From Pirellulales bacterium (GTDB lineage: Bacteria > Planctomycetota > Planctomycetia > Pirellulales > JBFWUW01): DNA of 64,000 nucleotides. The translations under genes were made by a program, and so were the position numbers. The stretch is taken from assembly GCA_050247075.1 (NCBI GenBank), contig JBFWUW010000037.1:1-64000 (forward strand). Direction: 5' to 3'. How positions within the stretch are numbered: position 1 is the first letter of the stretch; each line of letters starts with the position of its first letter. The notes under the pieces were generated by a model. The model made no database searches, had not been told where the DNA came from, and saw only the letters and a list, made by a program, of their open reading frames with translations. Shown piece after piece: positions 6,981 to 56,015 of the stretch.

Positions 6981-9900
6981 ATGCTTTCATTGAGACAGTA
7001 CGCTGTTGTTGGTTGGTTGATATTCCTGGTAGCGGGGAGGGTAGGCGCTGCCGAGCCGGCGAGTGAGTCGACGGAAGCGTTCGAACGGCTGGGGAAGCAG
7101 TACGATAGCGATGTTCGTCCGCTGCTCAAGCAGTTCTGCTTGGATTGCCACTCCAGCGATAAGCCCGAGGGGGAGTTGGATCTGGAAAGGTTTGCCACGC
7201 TGGCCGATGTTCGCACCGACACCAAGGTTTGGCTCAAAGCGGCCGAAATGTTAGACAACGGCGAAATGCCACCTAAGGGTTCCGCACAGCCATTGTCGCA
7301 ACAACGCCAGTCGTTGCGAAATTGGATCGCCGAGTACCTGGACGCCGAGGCCTTGGCCAGCGCCGGCGACCCGGGCCCCGTCGTGTTGCGGCGGCTGAAC
7401 AATGCCGAGTACACCTACACCGTCCGCGATTTGACCGCGGCCGAACTCTCGCCTGCCCGTGAGTTTCCCAGCGACAGCGCGGCGGGCGAAGGCTTCACCA
7501 ACACCGGCAGCGCCTTGGTCATGTCGCCAGCGCTATTGACCAAATATCTGGATGCCGGCAAGGATATCGCCAGCCATGCCGTGCTGTTGCCCGATGGCTT
7601 CCGTTTTTCCCATTCGGCCAACCGCAACGACTGGATCAACGATATTCTGGCCCAGATTCGGCAACTGTACTTTGAACAGACCGACTCCGCTGGCGGCACG
7701 CGGGTGAATCTGCAAGGGATCGTTTTTGACACCAACGGTGGCGGACGGTTGCCGGTGGCGGCTTATCTGCAAGCCACCTTGGCCGAACGTGATGCGCTGG
7801 CCGCTGGAAGCAAAACAACTGGGGATGTTGCCAAGGAACGCGGACTCAGCCCCAAATACCTGGCGGCGTTGTGGGGGATGCTCAACGAAAAGGAGGGTTC
7901 GCTGCTGTTGGACCGTGTGCGGCAACGCTGGAAGTTGGCCCGGCCGGAAGATGCCGAAGCACTGGCCGCTGAGATTGCCGTTTGGCAAAACGCCCTGACG
8001 CGGTTTCAGAGTGTAGGGCACATGAAGCCCTGGATGACACCCGCCGCGCCGCTAACGGCCCAGCAAGAGATTCGCTACAAGCTGCCGGCGGACGCCGCTG
8101 GCGATGTCGTTTTTTATCTGACAGCCCTTGAGGCAGGCGACGGTGCGGTGGGGGATGCGGCCTTGTGGCAACGCCCGCGGTTGGTGGCACCGGGCCGGCC
8201 CGATCTTTTGTTGCGCGACGTGCGGCGCTTTACCCGCCTGATGGCGTCGCGTCGCGGCCAGTTGTTTGCCGCCACCGCCAATTGCCTGAAGGCGGCGGCT
8301 GAAGCCAGCCTGGGCGACGCGGAAATCGACATCGCCGAATTGGCCCGGCGGCACAACACCGACGCCAGCTCGCTGCAATCGTGGCTCGATTTCCTCGGCA
8401 TCGGCCCCACGGCCACGCAAAAGCTCGACTTGTTTCAAGGCAAAATCGTCAACGCGTCGGGCTACGATTTCATCCGCGGCTGGGGATCGCACGATACGCC
8501 GCTGCTGTTGGCGAACTCCTCGGACCAACATGTGCGCGTCCCCGGCAACATGAAACCGCACGGAGTGACGGTCCACCCGTCGCCAACGTTGCAGGCCGCC
8601 GTGGGCTGGCGCAGCCCCGTATCCGCCCGGCTGCGGGTGGAAGGCAAGGTTTCGCATGCTCATCCCGAATGCGGCAACGGCATTGTCTGGTCGTTGGAAC
8701 TGCGGCGGGGTGCCGTCCGGCAACGATTGGCCAACGGTACGGCTGGCGGCAATCGGGATGCAGCCATTGGGCCAATCGAGTCGTTGGCGGTACGGCCGGG
8801 GGACCTGGTTTCGCTGCTGGTCGGTCCCCGCGATGGCAACCATGCGTGCGATTTGACGGATCTGGAGCTAACGCTCAAGAGCGACAAGCCCGACGGGCCG
8901 GCTTGGAGCCTGACGAGTGATGTCTCGCCCGACGTACAGGCCGGCAACCCGCACGCCGACCGATTGGGCAACAAGGATGTCTGGCACTTCTATACCGAGC
9001 CCGTTTCGGCAGCGTCCGCGGGGCCCGACATCCCCGCCGGATCGCTGCTGGCCCGCTGGCAGTTGGCGGATAAGGCAGACGAAAAGGCCAGCCTGGCGAA
9101 GGAACTACAAGCGTTGCTCTCCGGCCCGCCCCCCGCCGATGCCAATCATCCAGACGCGGCTCTATATCAACAGCTTGCCTCGCTAGGGGGCCCGCTGTTC
9201 GCGGCGGAATGGCAATCGTTGTTGAACAAGCCGGAGGATGCGGGAAATGATGGCCAATCGCCAGCATCCGAACCGGCGACCGACGAAGAAACCGCCGCGC
9301 CGCTGCCGGGCCTGGATCCGGCATTGTTCGGCAAGCTGCCGGACGGCAGGAGAATCGACGATGCCGATCTATGCTTTGCCGCCCCGGCATCGATGGAAAT
9401 TCGCCTGCCTGCCGACCTGGCGGCGGGGGCCGAGTTTGTCGCCGTGGGAACATTGGTGCAAACAAGCGAGAAACAGGGCAGCATTCAACTGCAAGCCGCG
9501 GGCGACAAGCCCGATGATTTGACTGCGCTGCGGCCCGACCTGCCGATTGTCGTCCGCGATGGCAGCGCAGCGCGGCAACGGTTTGAGAAAGCTTGCGACG
9601 ATTTCCGAAGTTGGTTTCCCGCCGCATTGTGCTACACCAAGATCGTGCCGGTCGATGAGGTCGTGACGCTGACGTTGTTTCATCGCGAGGATGAAGAGCT
9701 ATCGCGGCTGCTGCTGGACGACGAACAGCATGCCCGGCTGGACCGACTGTGGCAAGAACTGCACTTTATCAGTGGCGATGCCCTGACCTTGGTCGATGCC
9801 TTCGCCCAACTGCTGGAGTATGCCTCACAAGATAGCGACCCCAAACTGTTCGAACCCTTCCGCCAGCCGATCATGGACCGCGCCGCGGCTTTCCGCCAAA

Positions 9901-15443: not shown

Positions 15444-16958
15444 CTATGGCTGGATTTCGCGAATGGAAACCTCGGCCGTGCCGGTGTTATCGGCCAACGC
15501 CGCGGGTGAATCGTTGATGCGCAGGTAGAGCGTGCCGTCATGGGTCGGCAACAACGTGCTGAAAAGGCCCACGTTATCGTATTGCAACAGGGCGCTGGTA
15601 ACGTTCGGATCAACTTCGTCCGGACGGACGGCGGCTTGCAATATGCCCAACGGCGAACCGCGAAAATAATGGATCGACACGCCCCCTGGCTCGCTCCACC
15701 AGGCCTGGGGCTGTTGTTTTAATTGATACCGCCCGCTGGCCTCCACGCGGTAAGCCTTGTTCCGTTCCAGATGAATGCCCGTACTTTGCCAACCGGCATC
15801 GGCCGCTACTCTGACCGTTGCCCCCTTGGCGGGCAGCGGTTGGCCGGCCTCAAACCGCACCGCCATCCGCTCAAAGTCGTAGCCATAGTCAATATTGGCG
15901 ACGAACACCTGCCATTCCTCCAGCAATTCGCCCCATTCGTCGCCGTAGGCTTCTTGCAGCAATTGGTTGAAATTGGACTGGCGGGCCTGGTGGAACATCT
16001 GGCGAAAGCGGTCGCGATAACGCGGGTGCCCGTCCAAAAACGCTCCGGCCCCCCACGACCACCCGTACGACTCGTTGACCAGATGTGCCCGCGGCCCCAG
16101 CGCCAGCACCTTGGGAAACGTCAGCCCTTGCCGCGCGGCGTAGGCGTCTTTGACCAGCTTGACCCGCCCCCACAGCGGTAATTCCTCGCGCGACTTGGGA
16201 AAATACCCGGTGGTCAATTGTCCGTCGGCCCATAAATGCGTGCCAAAATATTCGGCCATCCCTTCGTTGTACCAAGGCGGGGCCACGTCGCTGACGTGGG
16301 CAAACATGAAAGCGTGCGTCCCCTCGTGCAGCATTAAATGCCGCCGATAATAGGCATTGGGCTGCTCCAGCATCCAAAACTCACGGCCCCGCGTATAACC
16401 GGAGGGAAATTCGGGCAAGTCGTCGTCCCACAGCCCGCACAGCCAAAACCGCTGTTTATCCGCCGCCAGAAAGGCGGTCGCCCGCCAACCGCTGTCTTCG
16501 GTGATCTCAAAATACTTTTGCCATTGGGGGACAGCCGCATCGAACACGGCTGGCAATTCGTCCACATCGGGACCGGCAGGCAGATCAGTGAAGAGCGTTA
16601 AATACTGGCCCTTCAATTCGCGGATGCCTTGTTCGCTCAGCCGCTCCTTGTCGATGGGCCGCGTGGCAACCTGCGGCACGGGGGGCTTGATATTCCGCGA
16701 GGAGGCGTTCGGCCCGGCTCTGTCTGGGCCGTTTCCAATGGCATCAGCCAGCGGAGAATCGGGATCGACCAACGGCTTATCGACCCTTGGCTGGCGCGGG
16801 CGGACAGGCTTCTTGGGACGCGGTGCCGCTGTATCCCCACTCGCTGGGCCAACCGCGGACGGCTGGGGAGCGACCGTGGCGGGAGGCGCGGCATCCCCAC
16901 AACCGGCCACGATCACCACCACCCAGGCAGCCAGGCACGAAAGCCCCTTGGGCATCAT
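15444..16958 (-). CDS. lipoprotein with HExxH motif (putative zinc metallopeptidase-like, DUF1570-like)
   Basis: The internal start gives MMPKGLSCLAAWVVVIVAGCGD (lipobox VAGC). The motif MLHEGTHAFMF is an HExxH variant. Secreted and about 500 aa, immediately upstream of blaI on the same strand. Confidence 0.55.
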   Translation of the reverse strand: MMPKGLSCLAAWVVVIVAGCGDAAPPATVAPQPSAVGPASGDTAAPRPKKPVRPRQPRVDKPLVDPDSPLADAIGNGPDRAGPNASSRNIKPPVPQVATRPIDKERLSEQGIRELKGQYLTLFTDLPAGPDVDELPAVFDAAVPQWQKYFEITEDSGWRATAFLAADKQRFWLCGLWDDDLPEFPSGYTRGREFWMLEQPNAYYRRHLMLHEGTHAFMFAHVSDVAPPWYNEGMAEYFGTHLWADGQLTTGYFPKSREELPLWGRVKLVKDAYAARQGLTFPKVLALGPRAHLVNESYGWSWGAGAFLDGHPRYRDRFRQMFHQARQSNFNQLLQEAYGDEWGELLEEWQVFVANIDYGYDFERMAVRFEAGQPLPAKGATVRVAADAGWQSTGIHLERNKAYRVEASGRYQLKQQPQAWWSEPGGVSIHYFRGSPLGILQAAVRPDEVDPNVTSALLQYDNVGLFSTLLPTHDGTLYLRINDSPAALADNTGTAEVSIREIQP

Positions 16959-52254: not shown

Positions 52255-53337
52255 CTACGGTTGCGGCAGAACTTCTGCCGCGGGCTGGGCCAGGTTCTTG
52301 GCGATGCCGGCCAGGTGCGCATCGCTATCTTGCAACATACGGGCAGCTTCTTCTAGAAATGCCGCGGCACGTTGCCGCTGGCCATCGAAGTACAGCTCCA
52401 AGCCAACCAGCAAGATCAGATCACTGCTGTCGGGTTGTTTGTCGGCTGCTTCCGCCAGCGATTCCAGGTGCGACTGTTTGGCGATTTTGAGGTCGCCATA
52501 AAGTTCCGCCAGATCCAGGGCGGCCTCGGCCATGTTAGGTTCCAGCTTCAGCCCGCGTTTGAAGGCCGTGGCGGCAATGGTGTACTCACCCTGGGCGACC
52601 ATCGCCTGGCCCTGCCGAAACCAGGTTTCCGGGACGTCGGGCGCGGCCTCGGATGCGTTCTTGTAGCGCTGGTTCGCCTGGCGAAACTCTTGCTTGACGA
52701 AATACTTGTCGCCGAGATTGATCCACCGCCAGGCCCGACTGACCGACTCAGGATTCGAGACACGCACCTTGGGCCTGCCTGCCGGTTTGTCTCGCGGTAG
52801 CGCCGCTTGGGGCAGGTTGATTACATTCACCTGGGGCGGCGGCGGATTGACACCCAGCCCCTCGGGGTTCCACAACCCTTGCAGATTCGGTCCCCATAGT
52901 TCATTGGCCGAATAGATCGCCGGACGGCCAAAGTAATACGAATAATTGGAATAGCCAAAAGGATAGCCCGCGCCGATACCGTAAGGATAGCCGTAACCGT
53001 ACCCGCCGTAATACGGTACAGGTCCGATCGTTCCGAAAAAGGCCCCATAGCCAGGCCCGCCATAATAGCCCGGTCCGCTACCGTAATAGCCGGTGCCGGA
53101 CGAATAATAGCCACTGTTGCCGCCGCTGTAGTACAGGCCGCCAAACCTGCGCCCGTTATTGGGGAGAAAATCGGCGTACCGGCGGGACGACGGATCGTGA
53201 ACCTCGGCCTGGCTGTAGCCCGGCACGATCTGGTCGCCCAACGTGCGGCGTCCGCGCTGGGCGGCAGCTTCGCGCGTTATGGCACCGCTAACCGCTACCA
53301 CAAATAACGCCAACAGCAAGCGACTGGCAAGCGACAT
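52255..53337 (-). CDS. secreted protein with Gly/Tyr-rich low-complexity region and C-terminal TPR-like domain
   Basis: Start MSLASRLLLALFVVAVSGAITREAAAQ (signal). ..GGLYYSGGNSGYYSSGTGYYGSGPGYYGGPGYGAFFG..YYGGYGYGYPYGIGAGYPFGYSNYSYYFG.. C-terminal helical repeats. Confidence 0.5.
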   Translation of the reverse strand: MSLASRLLLALFVVAVSGAITREAAAQRGRRTLGDQIVPGYSQAEVHDPSSRRYADFLPNNGRRFGGLYYSGGNSGYYSSGTGYYGSGPGYYGGPGYGAFFGTIGPVPYYGGYGYGYPYGIGAGYPFGYSNYSYYFGRPAIYSANELWGPNLQGLWNPEGLGVNPPPPQVNVINLPQAALPRDKPAGRPKVRVSNPESVSRAWRWINLGDKYFVKQEFRQANQRYKNASEAAPDVPETWFRQGQAMVAQGEYTIAATAFKRGLKLEPNMAEAALDLAELYGDLKIAKQSHLESLAEAADKQPDSSDLILLVGLELYFDGQRQRAAAFLEEAARMLQDSDAHLAGIAKNLAQPAAEVLPQP

Positions 53338-53415
53338 GGCAAAACCCTCCATCTCCGGTTCCGGCCGAGAAATGCTCCAGGTCTTATTATCACCTGAATC
53401 GGGCCATCCGGCAAA

Positions 53416-53474
53416 TCTTGTAGCAGGCGATTTCTTGTAGGAGGCGATTTCTTGTAGGAGGCGATTCCATCGCC
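53416..53474 (+). repeat. three tandem 17-nt repeats tcttgtag(c/g)aggcgatt ending in the palindrome GGCGATTCCATCGCC (variant of the GTAGGAGG-palindrome element)
   Basis: atcttgtagcaggcgatt-tcttgtaggaggcgatt-tcttgtaggaggcgatt-ccatcgcc, upstream of the GY-rich protein gene but written on the opposite strand. Confidence 0.7.
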
Positions 53475-53665
53475 GACAAGCCATGTACTGCCTGGACAGC
53501 GCAATGCTCGCCTGTTGGCCGCTGTAATCGGCCCGCTGCGACTGTTGCGTGGAAATCAGGCTTACGTGGGCTGAAGCCCACGCCACGGTCGCCTTCCGCG
53601 GGCATGCCAAATAAACGCGGGAGAGCGCCATTAGCGACGCTCCCCCGCTTCATACGCCACGACTG

Positions 53666-53866
53666 CTATTGAGCGCAGGCGCACCCAACGCATGCGCATA
53701 CGTCACAGGTGCAGAACAGGCCGTTGCAATCGGGGCAGTGGCATTCCACGCAGCCGCAACAGGTACTGGCCCGCGGGGCCGATGGCGTTGGCCTGGCATA
53801 CGACAGGGCAGCCATCGACACGACAACCGCTGCCAACAGCAGCGCGAACTTCGAGAGACGCTTCAT
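53666..53866 (-). CDS. small secreted cysteine-rich peptide (66 aa; 13 Cys in a 42-aa mature part)
   Basis: MKRLSKFALLLAAVVVSMAALSYA|RPTPSAPRASTCCGCVECHCPDCNGLFCTCDVCACVGCACAQ. Signal peptide, AGGA 8 nt upstream, GC3-rich coding bias. Confidence 0.5.
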   Translation of the reverse strand: MKRLSKFALLLAAVVVSMAALSYARPTPSAPRASTCCGCVECHCPDCNGLFCTCDVCACVGCACAQ

Positions 53867-53933
53867 GGAAGAATCCTTTCAGGCAAACTGGTTGTGAAAA
53901 AATAGAAACGAAACGACGGGCAGCCCCGTGGTT

Positions 53934-54365
53934 TCATTTCAACCAGATGCAGAAAAGCGCCAGCAATTTCGGACCAGCTCGCGAAGGTCGTTCCTCGGCC
54001 CGATCGAAATACTCGGCGGAAGAGAATGCGGAAAGGCTAGCCGCCGGAAAAACAGCCCAGCCCGCCAACTGCCGTTTGACGGCGGACAAGTCGAATAGTT
54101 CTCGCACGATGGGAGCCAGCGGAGGGGTGTGCTGGCAACAACAGCAAGTCCGGTCCAACAGTGCCGCGCCCCTGGCTGGCTGTTTCTTGGCGCAACAAGC
54201 ATGTTTCGGGCGGGCAGCATCCCCGGCCATGGAATGCGAACAGCAAGCCCGCTCGGGGCCGGCCCGCCTTGCACAACAGCACGGCCTAGCCACCGCCGCG
54301 ATCGGATTGACCGCCACGGCCAGCAACGTAATAAGAGCGACGATGGATCGAAGCGCTTTCATCAC
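53934..54365 (-). CDS. small secreted cysteine-rich protein with CC/CCC/CCCC clusters (C-terminal extent uncertain)
   Basis: MMKALRSIVALITLLAVAVNPIAAVA|RPCCCARRAGPERACCSHSMAGDAARPKHACCAKKQPARGAALLDRTCCCCQH... Signal peptide and the same A|RP junction as the neighbour. Confidence 0.45.
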   Translation of the reverse strand: MMKALRSIVALITLLAVAVNPIAAVARPCCCARRAGPERACCSHSMAGDAARPKHACCAKKQPARGAALLDRTCCCCQHTPPLAPIVRELFDLSAVKRQLAGWAVFPAASLSAFSSAEYFDRAEERPSRAGPKLLALFCIWLK

Positions 54366-54560
54366 ATTTGCATCGTATGAAGTTTGGCGCGGGCAAGCAA
54401 CTTTGATTCGCCGGTACTAGACCGAAGGCGATGCTATTACCGCTTTCACAAAGGTTCATCCACTCCACGAACCTCTATAGAATTCTAGCGAGCGCCCGTC
54501 GATTCCAGATTGGCCGTTTTGACGGGGCGGCCGCGACCGAGGTCCGTGCCCGGAATTGTC

Positions 54561-56015
54561 TCAACCACGGATCTCCGGCACGATGCTGCCTTCATTCACC
54601 GTGGGACGTTCGGGCCGGCCTTGATGGTGGTAGAGCAACCGGGTGTGATCGAGGCCAAGCAAATCAAGAATCGACGCGTGCAAGTCGTGGACGTGGATGC
54701 GGTTCTCCACCGCTTTCAAGCCAAAGTCGTCGGTCGCGCCAATCACGCGGCCGCCGCGAACTCCGCCCCCGGCCAGCCACATGGTAAAACCGTAAGGGTT
54801 GTGGTCGCGGCCGTCCCCTTTTTCGGACATCGGCGTGCGGCCGAACTCGCCCCCCCAGATCACCAGGGTGGAATCAAGCAGCCCGCGGGCTTTCAGATCG
54901 GCCAGCAGAGCGGCAATCGGCCGGTCGGTGGCTTGGCAAAGTTGGCCGTGGTTTTCCTCAATTTTGCTGTGGGCATCCCAGCGGCTGCCAGATCCGCCGT
55001 AAAGTTGCACGAAGCGCACGCCGCGTTCCACTAGCCGTCTGGCCAACAGACAATTGCGGCCAAACGCGGCGGTGGCCGGTTTGTCGATGCCATAGGCCGT
55101 TTGTGTGGCGGCGGTTTCTTGGGCCAAATCGACGGTCTCCGGTGCCTCGGCCTGCATGCGAAAGGCGAGTTCGTAGGAAGCAATGCGGGCCTCTAGTTCG
55201 CTATCACCAGGACGGTCTTGCGCATGCTGTCGATTGAGATGGGCGATGAAGTCAAGCTTGCGGCGTTGTTGCGAATCGGCCACTTGTTCTGGCGGTGCCA
55301 GGTGCAAAATGGGCCGCGGACCAGCCAAAAACCTGGTCCCTTGGTAGGTGGAAGGCATAAAACCGGTGCCCCACACGCGGCTGCCGCCGGGCGGCTCGCG
55401 GTCGCCATCCAGCAGCACCACGAACGACGGCAAATTCTGGCTCTCCGACCCCAGCCCATAGGTCACCCACGATCCCAAACTGGGCCGGCCCGCCAGGATA
55501 CTGCCGGTGTTCATCTGGCAAACGCTGCCGACATGGTTCAGGCCGTTGGCCCAACAAGACCGCACCACGGCGATATCGTCGATGCAGCGCCCAACGTGCG
55601 GGTACCAGTCGGATACTTCAATCCCGCTTTGGCCGTGGCGGGTCCACGTTCGCTTCGTCGGCAAGATGGGATTTTCGGAGACACCCATCGGCGTCAACAC
55701 ACGCTCGATCGAAGCCGGCAATGGTTGGCCGGCCAGTTCGTTGACTTTGGGTTTGTGGTCGAACGTATCCAGGTGGCTTGGCCCGCCATCCATAAACAAG
55801 AAAATCACGCTCCGCGCAGTCGCCCCATGATGGCCGGCCCGCGGCGCCAAGGGAGAAGTTGCCTGGGAATCGTCGGCGGCAACAGGTGACGGCTCGACCG
55901 ACTCGGCCAACAACGCCGCCAGCGCCAAGACACCGAATCCTCCGCCGGCCCGAGTTAAGAAATCGCGGCGGTGGCTGAAAGAGGCGAGCGGCAATGGCTG
56001 ACGGTCAATCGACAT
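54561..56015 (-). CDS. DUF1501 family protein (Tat-signal, sulfatase-like fold)
   Basis: RRDFLTRAGGGFGVLALAAL Tat motif and conserved DUF1501 blocks. Overlaps the start region of the DUF1549/1553 gene, the classic pairing. Confidence 0.85.
   Translation of the reverse strand: MSIDRQPLPLASFSHRRDFLTRAGGGFGVLALAALLAESVEPSPVAADDSQATSPLAPRAGHHGATARSVIFLFMDGGPSHLDTFDHKPKVNELAGQPLPASIERVLTPMGVSENPILPTKRTWTRHGQSGIEVSDWYPHVGRCIDDIAVVRSCWANGLNHVGSVCQMNTGSILAGRPSLGSWVTYGLGSESQNLPSFVVLLDGDREPPGGSRVWGTGFMPSTYQGTRFLAGPRPILHLAPPEQVADSQQRRKLDFIAHLNRQHAQDRPGDSELEARIASYELAFRMQAEAPETVDLAQETAATQTAYGIDKPATAAFGRNCLLARRLVERGVRFVQLYGGSGSRWDAHSKIEENHGQLCQATDRPIAALLADLKARGLLDSTLVIWGGEFGRTPMSEKGDGRDHNPYGFTMWLAGGGVRGGRVIGATDDFGLKAVENRIHVHDLHASILDLLGLDHTRLLYHHQGRPERPTVNEGSIVPEIRG

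Follow-up and report, generated by a model that had tools for sequence, protein, structure and literature searches.

The 64,000-nt stretch analysed here (Pirellulales bacterium, GenBank assembly GCA_050247075.1, contig JBFWUW010000037.1, positions 1 to 64,000), hereafter called the window, carries two adjacent minus-strand genes, A and B, for exported, extremely Cys-rich proteins. Both are real genes. Together they constitute a two-gene unit which probably serves the extracytoplasmic, thiolate-based handling of soft metals, most likely of Cu(I). Buffering of soft metals is proposed because the recurring neighbours of the pair in related loci are metal-homeostasis genes and because B resembles metallothioneins. 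Cu(I) is regarded as the most probable metal since genes for Csp-type copper storage proteins, CopA, multicopper oxidase and Cus proteins are found among these neighbours. A and B most likely represent an undescribed metal-binding pair of the cell envelope and not wall-building peptides.

Genes A and B and their conservation

An earlier note on this DNA had described two tandem minus-strand open reading frames (ORFs) for exported Cys-rich proteins, each with a clean Sec signal peptide ending before Arg-Pro. The ORFs were found as described, and the Cys strings quoted there are exact. B is a 66 aa protein that divides into the signal peptide MKRLSKFALLLAAVVVSMAALSYA and the remainder RPTPSAPRASTCCGCVECHCPDCNGLFCTCDVCACVGCACAQ; the mature protein has ~42 residues. 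The ORF of A spans 53934..54365 and encodes 143 aa if counted from a GTG. The start codon was placed one codon inside this GTG, at the ATG at 54362, because the homologues and the conserved promoter position fix it there, which results in 142 aa. Both N-termini display the n/h/c layout of Sec signal peptides with A-x-A preceding Arg-Pro, the cleavage sites being read from the sequence, and this layout is kept across the homologues of A and B. A lipoprotein or a Tat (twin-arginine translocation) substrate can be dismissed, as neither a lipobox nor a twin arginine is present in A or B. The Sec-type N-termini (MKR, hydrophobic core, AxA) and the lack of a maturase among the called neighbours at the surveyed loci also speak against a precursor of a ribosomally synthesized and post-translationally modified peptide (RiPP).

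Word-indexed protein homologue searches with A and B returned nothing. Only an exhaustive HMMER search against 1.84 billion cluster representatives recovered the B family: 58 representatives passed the limit of E<=1e-3, and 17 reached E<=1e-10. Among the 58, P0167 (1118 aa) was judged to be spurious, as it is a low-complexity repeat protein; 57 are credible. Only one database member bears a name, a 'hypothetical protein' from a Planctomycetales metagenome-assembled genome (MAG). Homologues with a conserved Cys pattern and conserved synteny, which the earlier note had named as a check, were both found: in 18/18 loci with upstream sequence, an A homologue is located immediately upstream of B (tblastn, E 1e-63 to 4e-6). 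The two genes are separated by 62-159 nt, 66-67 being the commonest distance. When the loci are compared, the third codon position is the most divergent in B (0.32/0.30/0.56 for positions 1/2/3) as well as in A (0.48/0.40/0.63), and the codons of the GPxLLALYC motif in A vary synonymously. On this comparative evidence, A is accepted as a gene.

The same locus is present on contig JBFWZW010000018 of GCA_050184935.1, a Pirellulales MAG. Two other approaches did not yield orthologous loci: the closest DUF1501 homologues (73-79% identity) are not syntenic, and a scan of genome contigs anchored on the Gly/Tyr-rich neighbour of the pair gave one match, from Flavobacteriales, which is spurious.

As a competitor, the earlier note had named an antisense ORF at 53692..54420 on the plus strand. 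This ORF (242 aa) is specific for the window and was rejected as a real gene: antisense open stretches at the other loci differ from it in frame and length. Codon usage, also suggested as a check, lends no support to the plus strand, as no frame between 53934 and 54420 looks coding, but A is not favoured either: with usage trained on the window, it scores -0.15 bits/codon and its GC profile is flat. The score of B is low because Cys codons are rare in ordinary genes. Scoring based on the window alone could not separate coding from non-coding sequence at such atypical compositions.

Gene A is often missed by automated annotation. In GCA_050184935.1, B is called, and the 695-nt interval containing A is left without a gene call; A is also uncalled in two related loci, L023 (9072-9503) and L025 (7416-7841). 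In several database entries, among them P0122 of L022, A is fused out of frame to B as a false N-terminal extension. A shared 'LLQMAELI' in such over-extended N-termini, which was considered as a separate regulatory element, corresponds to the A C-terminus read out of frame.

The B family and its metallothionein-like module

The 57 members of the B family consist of an MKR-type Sec signal peptide and one to three copies of a ~30-residue module, C-x-C-x2-C-x-C-P-x-C-x-G-x2-C-x-C-x2-C-x-C-x2-C-x-C. Including the signal peptide, they are 59-181 aa long. In the module alignment, 11 Cys columns as well as the P and G columns are invariant or near so. From the first module to the C-terminus, Cys accounts for 26% of the residues, F+Y+W for 1.7% and His for 0.7%. 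The remaining positions are variable, small, charged or hydrophilic and provide no hydrophobic core. Multi-module members and 80-aa single-module forms contain a conserved CC in the linker or tail. An AlphaFold2 (AF2) model of B based on a 21-sequence alignment was confident only for the signal-peptide helix; the module displayed no secondary structure at a predicted local distance difference test (pLDDT) score of 48-57. The Cys count is odd in 33/52 members, with typically 11 Cys in single-module forms. Odd Cys counts and the lack of a confident AF2 fold mean that metal-dependent folding fits better than a disulfide knot.

No family was assigned at threshold to the B protein of the window in Pfam and NCBIfam, and comparison with PDB sequences revealed no relative, only one meaningless match with E = 1. 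Searches with A were empty, too, and the statement of the earlier note that no characterised family can be recognized holds for both proteins. In 11/28 B members, sub-threshold matches to PF12749 (Metallothio_Euk) were observed, with a best E of 0.02, and nothing else meaningful. Membership of B in the defined metallothionein families PF00131, PF02069 (SmtA/BmtA) and PF12749 was rejected, as none of these models matched significantly. The assessment 'not classical metallothionein' is therefore correct in terms of family models, but not in terms of composition and CxC/CxxC spacing, which are metallothionein-like.

B shares with eukaryotic metallothioneins, SmtA/BmtA (PF02069) and MymT the small size, a Cys content of ~26-39%, the CxC/CxxC/CC spacing, the near absence of aromatic residues and His, the modular duplication of Cys domains and the lack of a predicted fold without metal. 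By its size, Cys content and spacing, few aromatics and missing autonomous fold, it would match the operational class of metallothioneins. It differs from them in three respects. First, it has no significant match to any metallothionein model or solved metallothionein structure. Second, it carries a Sec signal, whereas SmtA and MymT are without an export signal (PMC7558416). Third, its gene is in all cases accompanied by that of a second Cys-cluster protein, A.

Single-module B proteins seem to have arisen from two-module ones through recombination between the tandem modules, with loss of the interior. P0131 (L024 4545-4745) reads like the two-module B of L013 (4173-4547) with the interior deleted. 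The module of the window B resembles second modules in its CCGC start and CxCVGCACA end. The B protein of L021 (10001-10549) is extended at its C-terminus by 60 non-homologous residues, suggestive of a frameshift or a decaying copy. The adjacent DUF1501 gene (L021 7896-9306) is broken into three fragments and apparently a pseudogene.

Metal-homeostasis genes adjoin the pair in related loci

After near-identical contigs had been collapsed, 16 distinct loci remained, 15 of them with informative flanks. Csp homologues (PF03860; TIGR04401 'Csp1 family') are encoded within 2.5 kb of A-B in 10/15 informative loci. In L006/L008, L009, L010, L011/12, L022, L025 and L026, the csp gene directly follows B and has the same orientation. 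In the Csp copies of L006/L008 and L011, a Tat-type signal (M..RREFG...) can be read. L017/18 and L020 contain a signal-less Csp3-like gene on the opposite strand, and in L014 a csp gene is found 2 kb upstream of A-B.

L014 reads as a textbook copper island. Its gene order is: CopA-type P1B ATPase (with YHS and HMBD domains), multicopper oxidase, DUF326 protein, outer-membrane efflux protein, A and B, His-rich lipoprotein, CusA/CzcA pump of the resistance-nodulation-division (RND) type and CusB-like adaptor. Furthermore, the cusBA operon begins with an A-like paralogue (15782-16177, C-terminus ...SLLCVWRI). L025 and L026 share the order MerR-family heavy-metal regulator, MauE membrane protein, A, B, Csp. 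The two MerR regulators have a CueR-like C-x8-C-P-I motif and score about equally as CueR, MerR and ZntR, in all cases below the cutoff. The MauE protein of L026 carries an N-terminal HMA-like (CGSC) domain, as judged from its sequence; management of thiols or disulfides is one possibility for this neighbour. In L013 and L024, A-B is located beside a ZntA/CadA-type ATPase. Planctomycete hallmark genes (PSCyt, DUF1501, SBP_bac_10) flank several loci.

The earlier note had offered several options for the peptides, and this context favours one of them. Csp, P1B ATPases, multicopper oxidase, CusBA-type efflux and MerR-type regulators adjoining the pair favour a periplasmic Cu/Zn/Cd sponge. Envelope cross-linking or structural peptides similar to YTV wall proteins were not borne out: there is no YTV or other Pfam match, the family comprises only 58 clusters and it is found in the company of metal genes. 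A YTV-type identity was rejected specifically, as Pfam scans of A, B and their homologues revealed no YTV domain and no YTV motif is visible.

In L014, a lipoprotein-like 127-aa protein (8471-8854, minus strand) with a DDHGHAGHEH stretch and without a Pfam match adjoins A-B. Its C-terminal CPV..G...CC..C is possibly TRASH/YHS-like.

The A family

An alignment of ten distinct A proteins (A3) revealed a signal peptide, the Cys clusters PCCC, CC, CC and CCC, ~55 poorly conserved residues and the invariant C-terminus GPxLLAL[YFH]Cx-W-L-K. Invariant residues in A3 are P27, C28, C30, C40, C41, C56, C73, C75, P131, L136, C138 and W140. The proteins are 130-148 aa long. AF2 prediction of A from a single sequence (pLDDT 52) yielded helices only at the two termini, and the Cys clusters came out disordered. 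A search with 10 A homologues, the A-like paralogue and a third Cys-rich protein found nothing beyond noise at E<=10 in Pfam/NCBIfam, and no relatives of A were detected among PDB sequences. A has no detectable relatives outside its own family. CopL-, CusF-, CopC- or PcoE-type identities were discarded for A on the same grounds, i.e. no NCBIfam/Pfam match and no PDB relative.

Further A-like Cys-cluster proteins are encoded at L014 15782-16177 (minus strand), L008 9292-9777 (plus strand) and L006 2636-3100 (plus strand). All share a signal peptide, clusters of the CCC/CGCC type and a C-terminus that is hydrophobic (...SLLCVWRI or ...QQSFLC), and none matches a Pfam or NCBIfam model. One of these genes follows a csp gene and precedes MacB-type genes for ATP-binding cassette (ABC) transporters and HlyD genes.

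Comparison with known envelope copper and mercury proteins

Exported thiolate-rich storage of Cu(I) has a precedent in Csp1 (PMC7558416; PMC10155185), the only known exported thiolate-rich copper store (PMC7558416). High-capacity Cu(I) binding by an exported thiolate-rich protein is the function proposed here for B, and no other gene adjoins the pair directly as often as csp. Csp1 is a Tat-exported, pre-folded four-helix bundle with a Cys-lined core, whereas B is short, uses the Sec pathway and displays no predicted secondary structure. The two do not share sequence similarity, and the window is without a csp gene near the pair. Membership of A or B in the Csp family was rejected, since no Csp model matched and AF2 did not predict helices in the B module; Csp is a neighbour, not a homologue.

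The PcoE/SilE sponges and the chaperones CusF and CopC belong to the small periplasmic proteins of Cu/Ag resistance clusters for which a role in first-line sequestration or hand-over has been proposed (PMC7558416). The A-like paralogue that heads the cusBA operon takes the position of cusF in E. coli. In contrast to A and B, which offer cysteine only, these proteins use Met/His (and Trp) ligands that suit an oxidising periplasm, and no sequence relationship could be detected.

Adjacent Cys residues as in the A clusters and in the inter-module CC of B also occur in envelope proteins of metal-resistance operons: MerT and MerF carry CC pairs and CopG carries CxCC. Homology is not detectable. A is not an integral membrane transporter and is not predicted to adopt a thioredoxin-like fold.

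Proposed function and alternatives

The proposed mechanism is as follows. B would be exported unfolded via Sec, and its 11-12-Cys module would then gather several soft metal ions into metal-thiolate clusters within the periplasm, with Cu(I) as the likeliest ligand and Zn/Cd in some lineages. B could thereby buffer metal at high capacity, as a 'sponge' comparable to the metallothioneins of the cytosol. A would be exported, too. With its vicinal-Cys clusters (CCC/CC/CC/CCC) in a disordered region and its conserved C-terminal hydrophobic helix, it might be a lower-abundance companion that captures metal and passes it to B, and where present, Csp1 storage proteins or efflux pumps may also receive metal from A. 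The A:B expression ratio is suggested by the apparently leaderless start of A and the Shine-Dalgarno sequence of B.

A more specific model, which is possible but doubtful, combines A, B and an exported Csp1-type protein into a dedicated periplasmic Cu(I) relay. Here, the vicinal-Cys clusters of A would capture Cu(I), A would load B and the Csp1 bundle or unload them toward efflux pumps, and the RNA stem between A and B (see below) would set the A:B ratio via translational coupling or mRNA processing. How Csps are loaded with copper has been stated to be unknown (PMC7558416; PMC10155185), and full-text literature searches uncovered no account of bacterial metallothioneins that are exported or of proteins partnering Csp1. 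If true, the relay would be the first system identified that loads exported copper stores of bacteria, and B the first exported bacterial metallothionein. B together with A is a concrete candidate for periplasmic Cu(I) buffering and hand-over: Sec-exported, modular and usually beside Csp. The pair would add two protein families to the metal-resistance determinants used in metagenome annotation, of which one, A, was missed or mis-called by gene callers in at least three examined loci. It would moderately surprise specialists in bacterial metal homeostasis.

Several points weigh against metal handling by the pair. In the window, A-B is a stand-alone unit: no metal-related genes were found within about 10 kb on either side, and the promoter region of A, with its 17-nt spacer, does not contain a recognisable metal-regulator operator. 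L021 and L023 are without metal genes in the flanking sequence examined as well. In the normally oxidising periplasm, free thiolates would have to be protected or quickly loaded with metal. MauE, a neighbour in two loci, could point to disulfides instead of thiolates. The neighbours leave the identity of the metal ambiguous: most of them are of the Cu type, but Zn/Cd-type ATPases occur in two loci, and the MerR scores are equal. Finally, the role of A as a metal-capturing companion, perhaps a chaperone or loader, is conjectural.

Four alternatives were considered. In the first, the metal bound by the pair is chiefly a divalent thiophilic ion (Zn, Cd, Pb or Hg) and not Cu(I). The ATPase of L013/L024 is of the P1B-2 (ZntA/CadA) type: TIGR01512 gives it 518-523 bits, the Cu model about 397. 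For the MerR regulators, the MerR and ZntR models reach scores as good as that of CueR. Eleven Cys per module is the number found in the M4S11 cluster of the mammalian metallothionein alpha-domain, and vicinal Cys pairs serve Hg(II) transfer in MerT/MerF. However, Cu(I)-specific partners prevail at most loci, with Csp in 10/15 and CopA-type ATPase, multicopper oxidase and CusB in L014. Moreover, the MerR-type regulators seem to lack the extra N-terminal Cys typical of divalent-metal sensors. A preference for divalent ions is fairly unlikely.

According to the second alternative, B is a disulfide-rich secreted peptide with oxidised Cys residues, be it antimicrobial, signalling or structural/cross-linking including a wall protein, and A its partner or precursor. 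Both proteins are exported via Sec into an oxidising compartment, and the window copy resides among extracytoplasmic genes without a link to metal. MauE, whose gene precedes A in L025/L026, belongs to a family linked to disulfide formation in the Cys-rich periplasmic subunit of methylamine dehydrogenase. The odd Cys counts given above, with typically 11 in single-module forms, do not agree with this idea, nor do the small or charged, variable non-Cys positions without a hydrophobic core and the failure of AF2 to provide a confident fold. No recurring immunity gene, dedicated exporter or maturase adjoins the pair in the surveyed loci; MacB-type ABC genes occur near L008 and L025, but their presence next to the pair is not conserved. 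A wall-protein domain, YTV or other, was not matched, and the family is rare, unlike a general envelope component. The recurring neighbours are metal-homeostasis genes, and a disulfide peptide is unlikely. If it were true, the family would represent a new class of secreted Cys-knot peptides in Planctomycetota.

Third, the pair could serve as a thiol redox buffer in the periplasm or scavenge oxidants, electrophiles or hypochlorite; its metal neighbours would then only reflect the overlap between copper and oxidative stress. The very high thiol density would be in agreement with such a role, and radical scavenging is also credited to metallothioneins and CueP. Thioredoxin/AhpC-type genes are present within a few kb in L023, but no reductase or thioredoxin-like partner is consistently linked. 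In addition, the CxC/CxxC spacing is kept far more strictly than a sacrificial thiol pool requires, and the tight linkage to Csp points to metal, which renders a redox buffer quite improbable.

Fourth, it is very improbable that A is mainly a regulatory upstream ORF whose Cys codons and termination within a stem tune B to cysteine supply or metal status: although A is apparently leaderless and poorly conserved in its middle, and its stop and last three codons are located, nearly invariant at the nucleotide level, in a predicted stem upstream of the B ribosome-binding site, it is with 130-148 aa far longer than attenuator leader peptides, its signal peptide, four positioned Cys clusters and synonymously varying C-terminal motif are protein-level constraints, its Cys clusters are >200 nt away from the stem, and A-like paralogues exist without B, e.g. 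at L014 15782-16177.

Transcription unit and RNA elements

Coordinates are summarized in Table 1. Upstream of A, a putative sigma-70-like promoter is present. Its putative -10 element ends 9 nt before the start codon, and a Shine-Dalgarno sequence is missing, which suggests that A mRNA is leaderless or near-leaderless. This layout may explain why gene callers miss A. By eye, a TTGC[CT][CT]-N17/18-TAnnnT pattern is visible 7-11 nt before the ATG of A in L011, L021, L022, L023 and L013; a scan with a strict promoter consensus did not pick up the A promoter. B is preceded by a Shine-Dalgarno sequence of the AAGGA/AGGAG type (AAGGA at 53878-53874 in the window). Downstream of B, an intrinsic terminator-like hairpin is followed by the T tract GTTTATTTGG. 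With this hairpin after B, A-B forms a self-contained transcription unit.

Just 5' of the B Shine-Dalgarno sequence, a stem is predicted between the end of A and B. Its 5' arm is composed of the last codons of A, UGG UUG AAA, and the stop codon, its 3' arm ends with UUC..AACCA, and it encloses the inner hairpin ACGGG-GCUG-CCCGU (53929-53916). The minimum free energy in the window is -23.3 kcal/mol (z = -4.15). An analogous closing stem was found in 10/10 loci folded, with z between -1.3 and -5.2: UGG UUG AAA UGA pairs with UUCAAYYA located 12-23 nt upstream of the B ATG, and variable hairpins are enclosed. TGG TTG AAA is nearly invariant at the nucleotide level, whereas other Leu codons vary. 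At no single locus did an ungapped 8-mer pairing test of the stem reach significance, and RNAalifold returned no structure for the MAFFT-aligned intercistronic region. A conserved intercistronic element whose pairing is moderately supported may be proposed; processing, attenuation or translational coupling are possibilities for its role. A comparison of 53300-54700 with Rfam produced only noise, and PADLOC gave no match.

Table 1. Positions of genes A and B, their subregions and associated elements in the window and in related loci
Feature	Position	Strand	Description
Gene A	53934..54362	-	142 aa; upstream of B
Gene A signal peptide			residues 1-25; MKALRSIVALITLLAVAVNPIAAVA
Gene A Cys-cluster region	about 54135-54284	-	PCCC, CC, CC, CCCC
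Gene A middle			~55 residues, weak conservation
Gene A C-terminal motif	53937-53975	-	GPKLLALFCIWLK, invariant
Gene B	53666..53866	-	signal peptide residues 1-24, SYA end before RP
Gene B linker			short Pro/Ser/Ala stretch between signal peptide and module
Gene B module	53675-53764	-	residues 35-64, one 12-Cys metallothionein-like module
Putative sigma-70-like promoter	54372..54400	-	TTGCTT 54400-54395, 17-nt spacer, TACGAT 54377-54372
Intercistronic RNA element	53889..53945	-	predicted stem between A end and B
Intrinsic terminator-like hairpin	53607..53648	-	17 nt after B stop; 14-bp stem (10 G-C pairs), 4-nt loop
Intercistronic RNA element, other loci	L006 1291-1348; L009 472-530; L011 1817-1874; L013 4094-4152; L014 7872-7988; L018 429-528; L021 9922-9981; L022 9516-9568; L023 9492-9564
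MerR-MauE stretch	L025 6015-7329; L026 6190-7364		directly upstream of A-B-Csp

Neighbouring genes in the window

The extracytoplasmic neighbourhood of the pair is as stated in the earlier note: a PSCyt2/PSD1 (DUF1549/1553) gene and a DUF1501 gene are located upstream, and a gene for a Gly/Tyr-rich TPR protein downstream. For the latter, the mechanical ORF of 458 aa (52255-53631, minus strand) is over-extended. The called gene starts at 53337, encodes 360 aa and carries its own signal peptide. The extra 98 codons score 0.02 bits/codon, i.e. without coding signal, and overlap a tandem repeat. This repeat, at 53416-53466, consists of three perfect tandem copies of the 17-nt unit TCTTGTAGGAGGCGATT (plus strand) and lies beyond the A-B terminator, before the Gly/Tyr-rich TPR gene begins.

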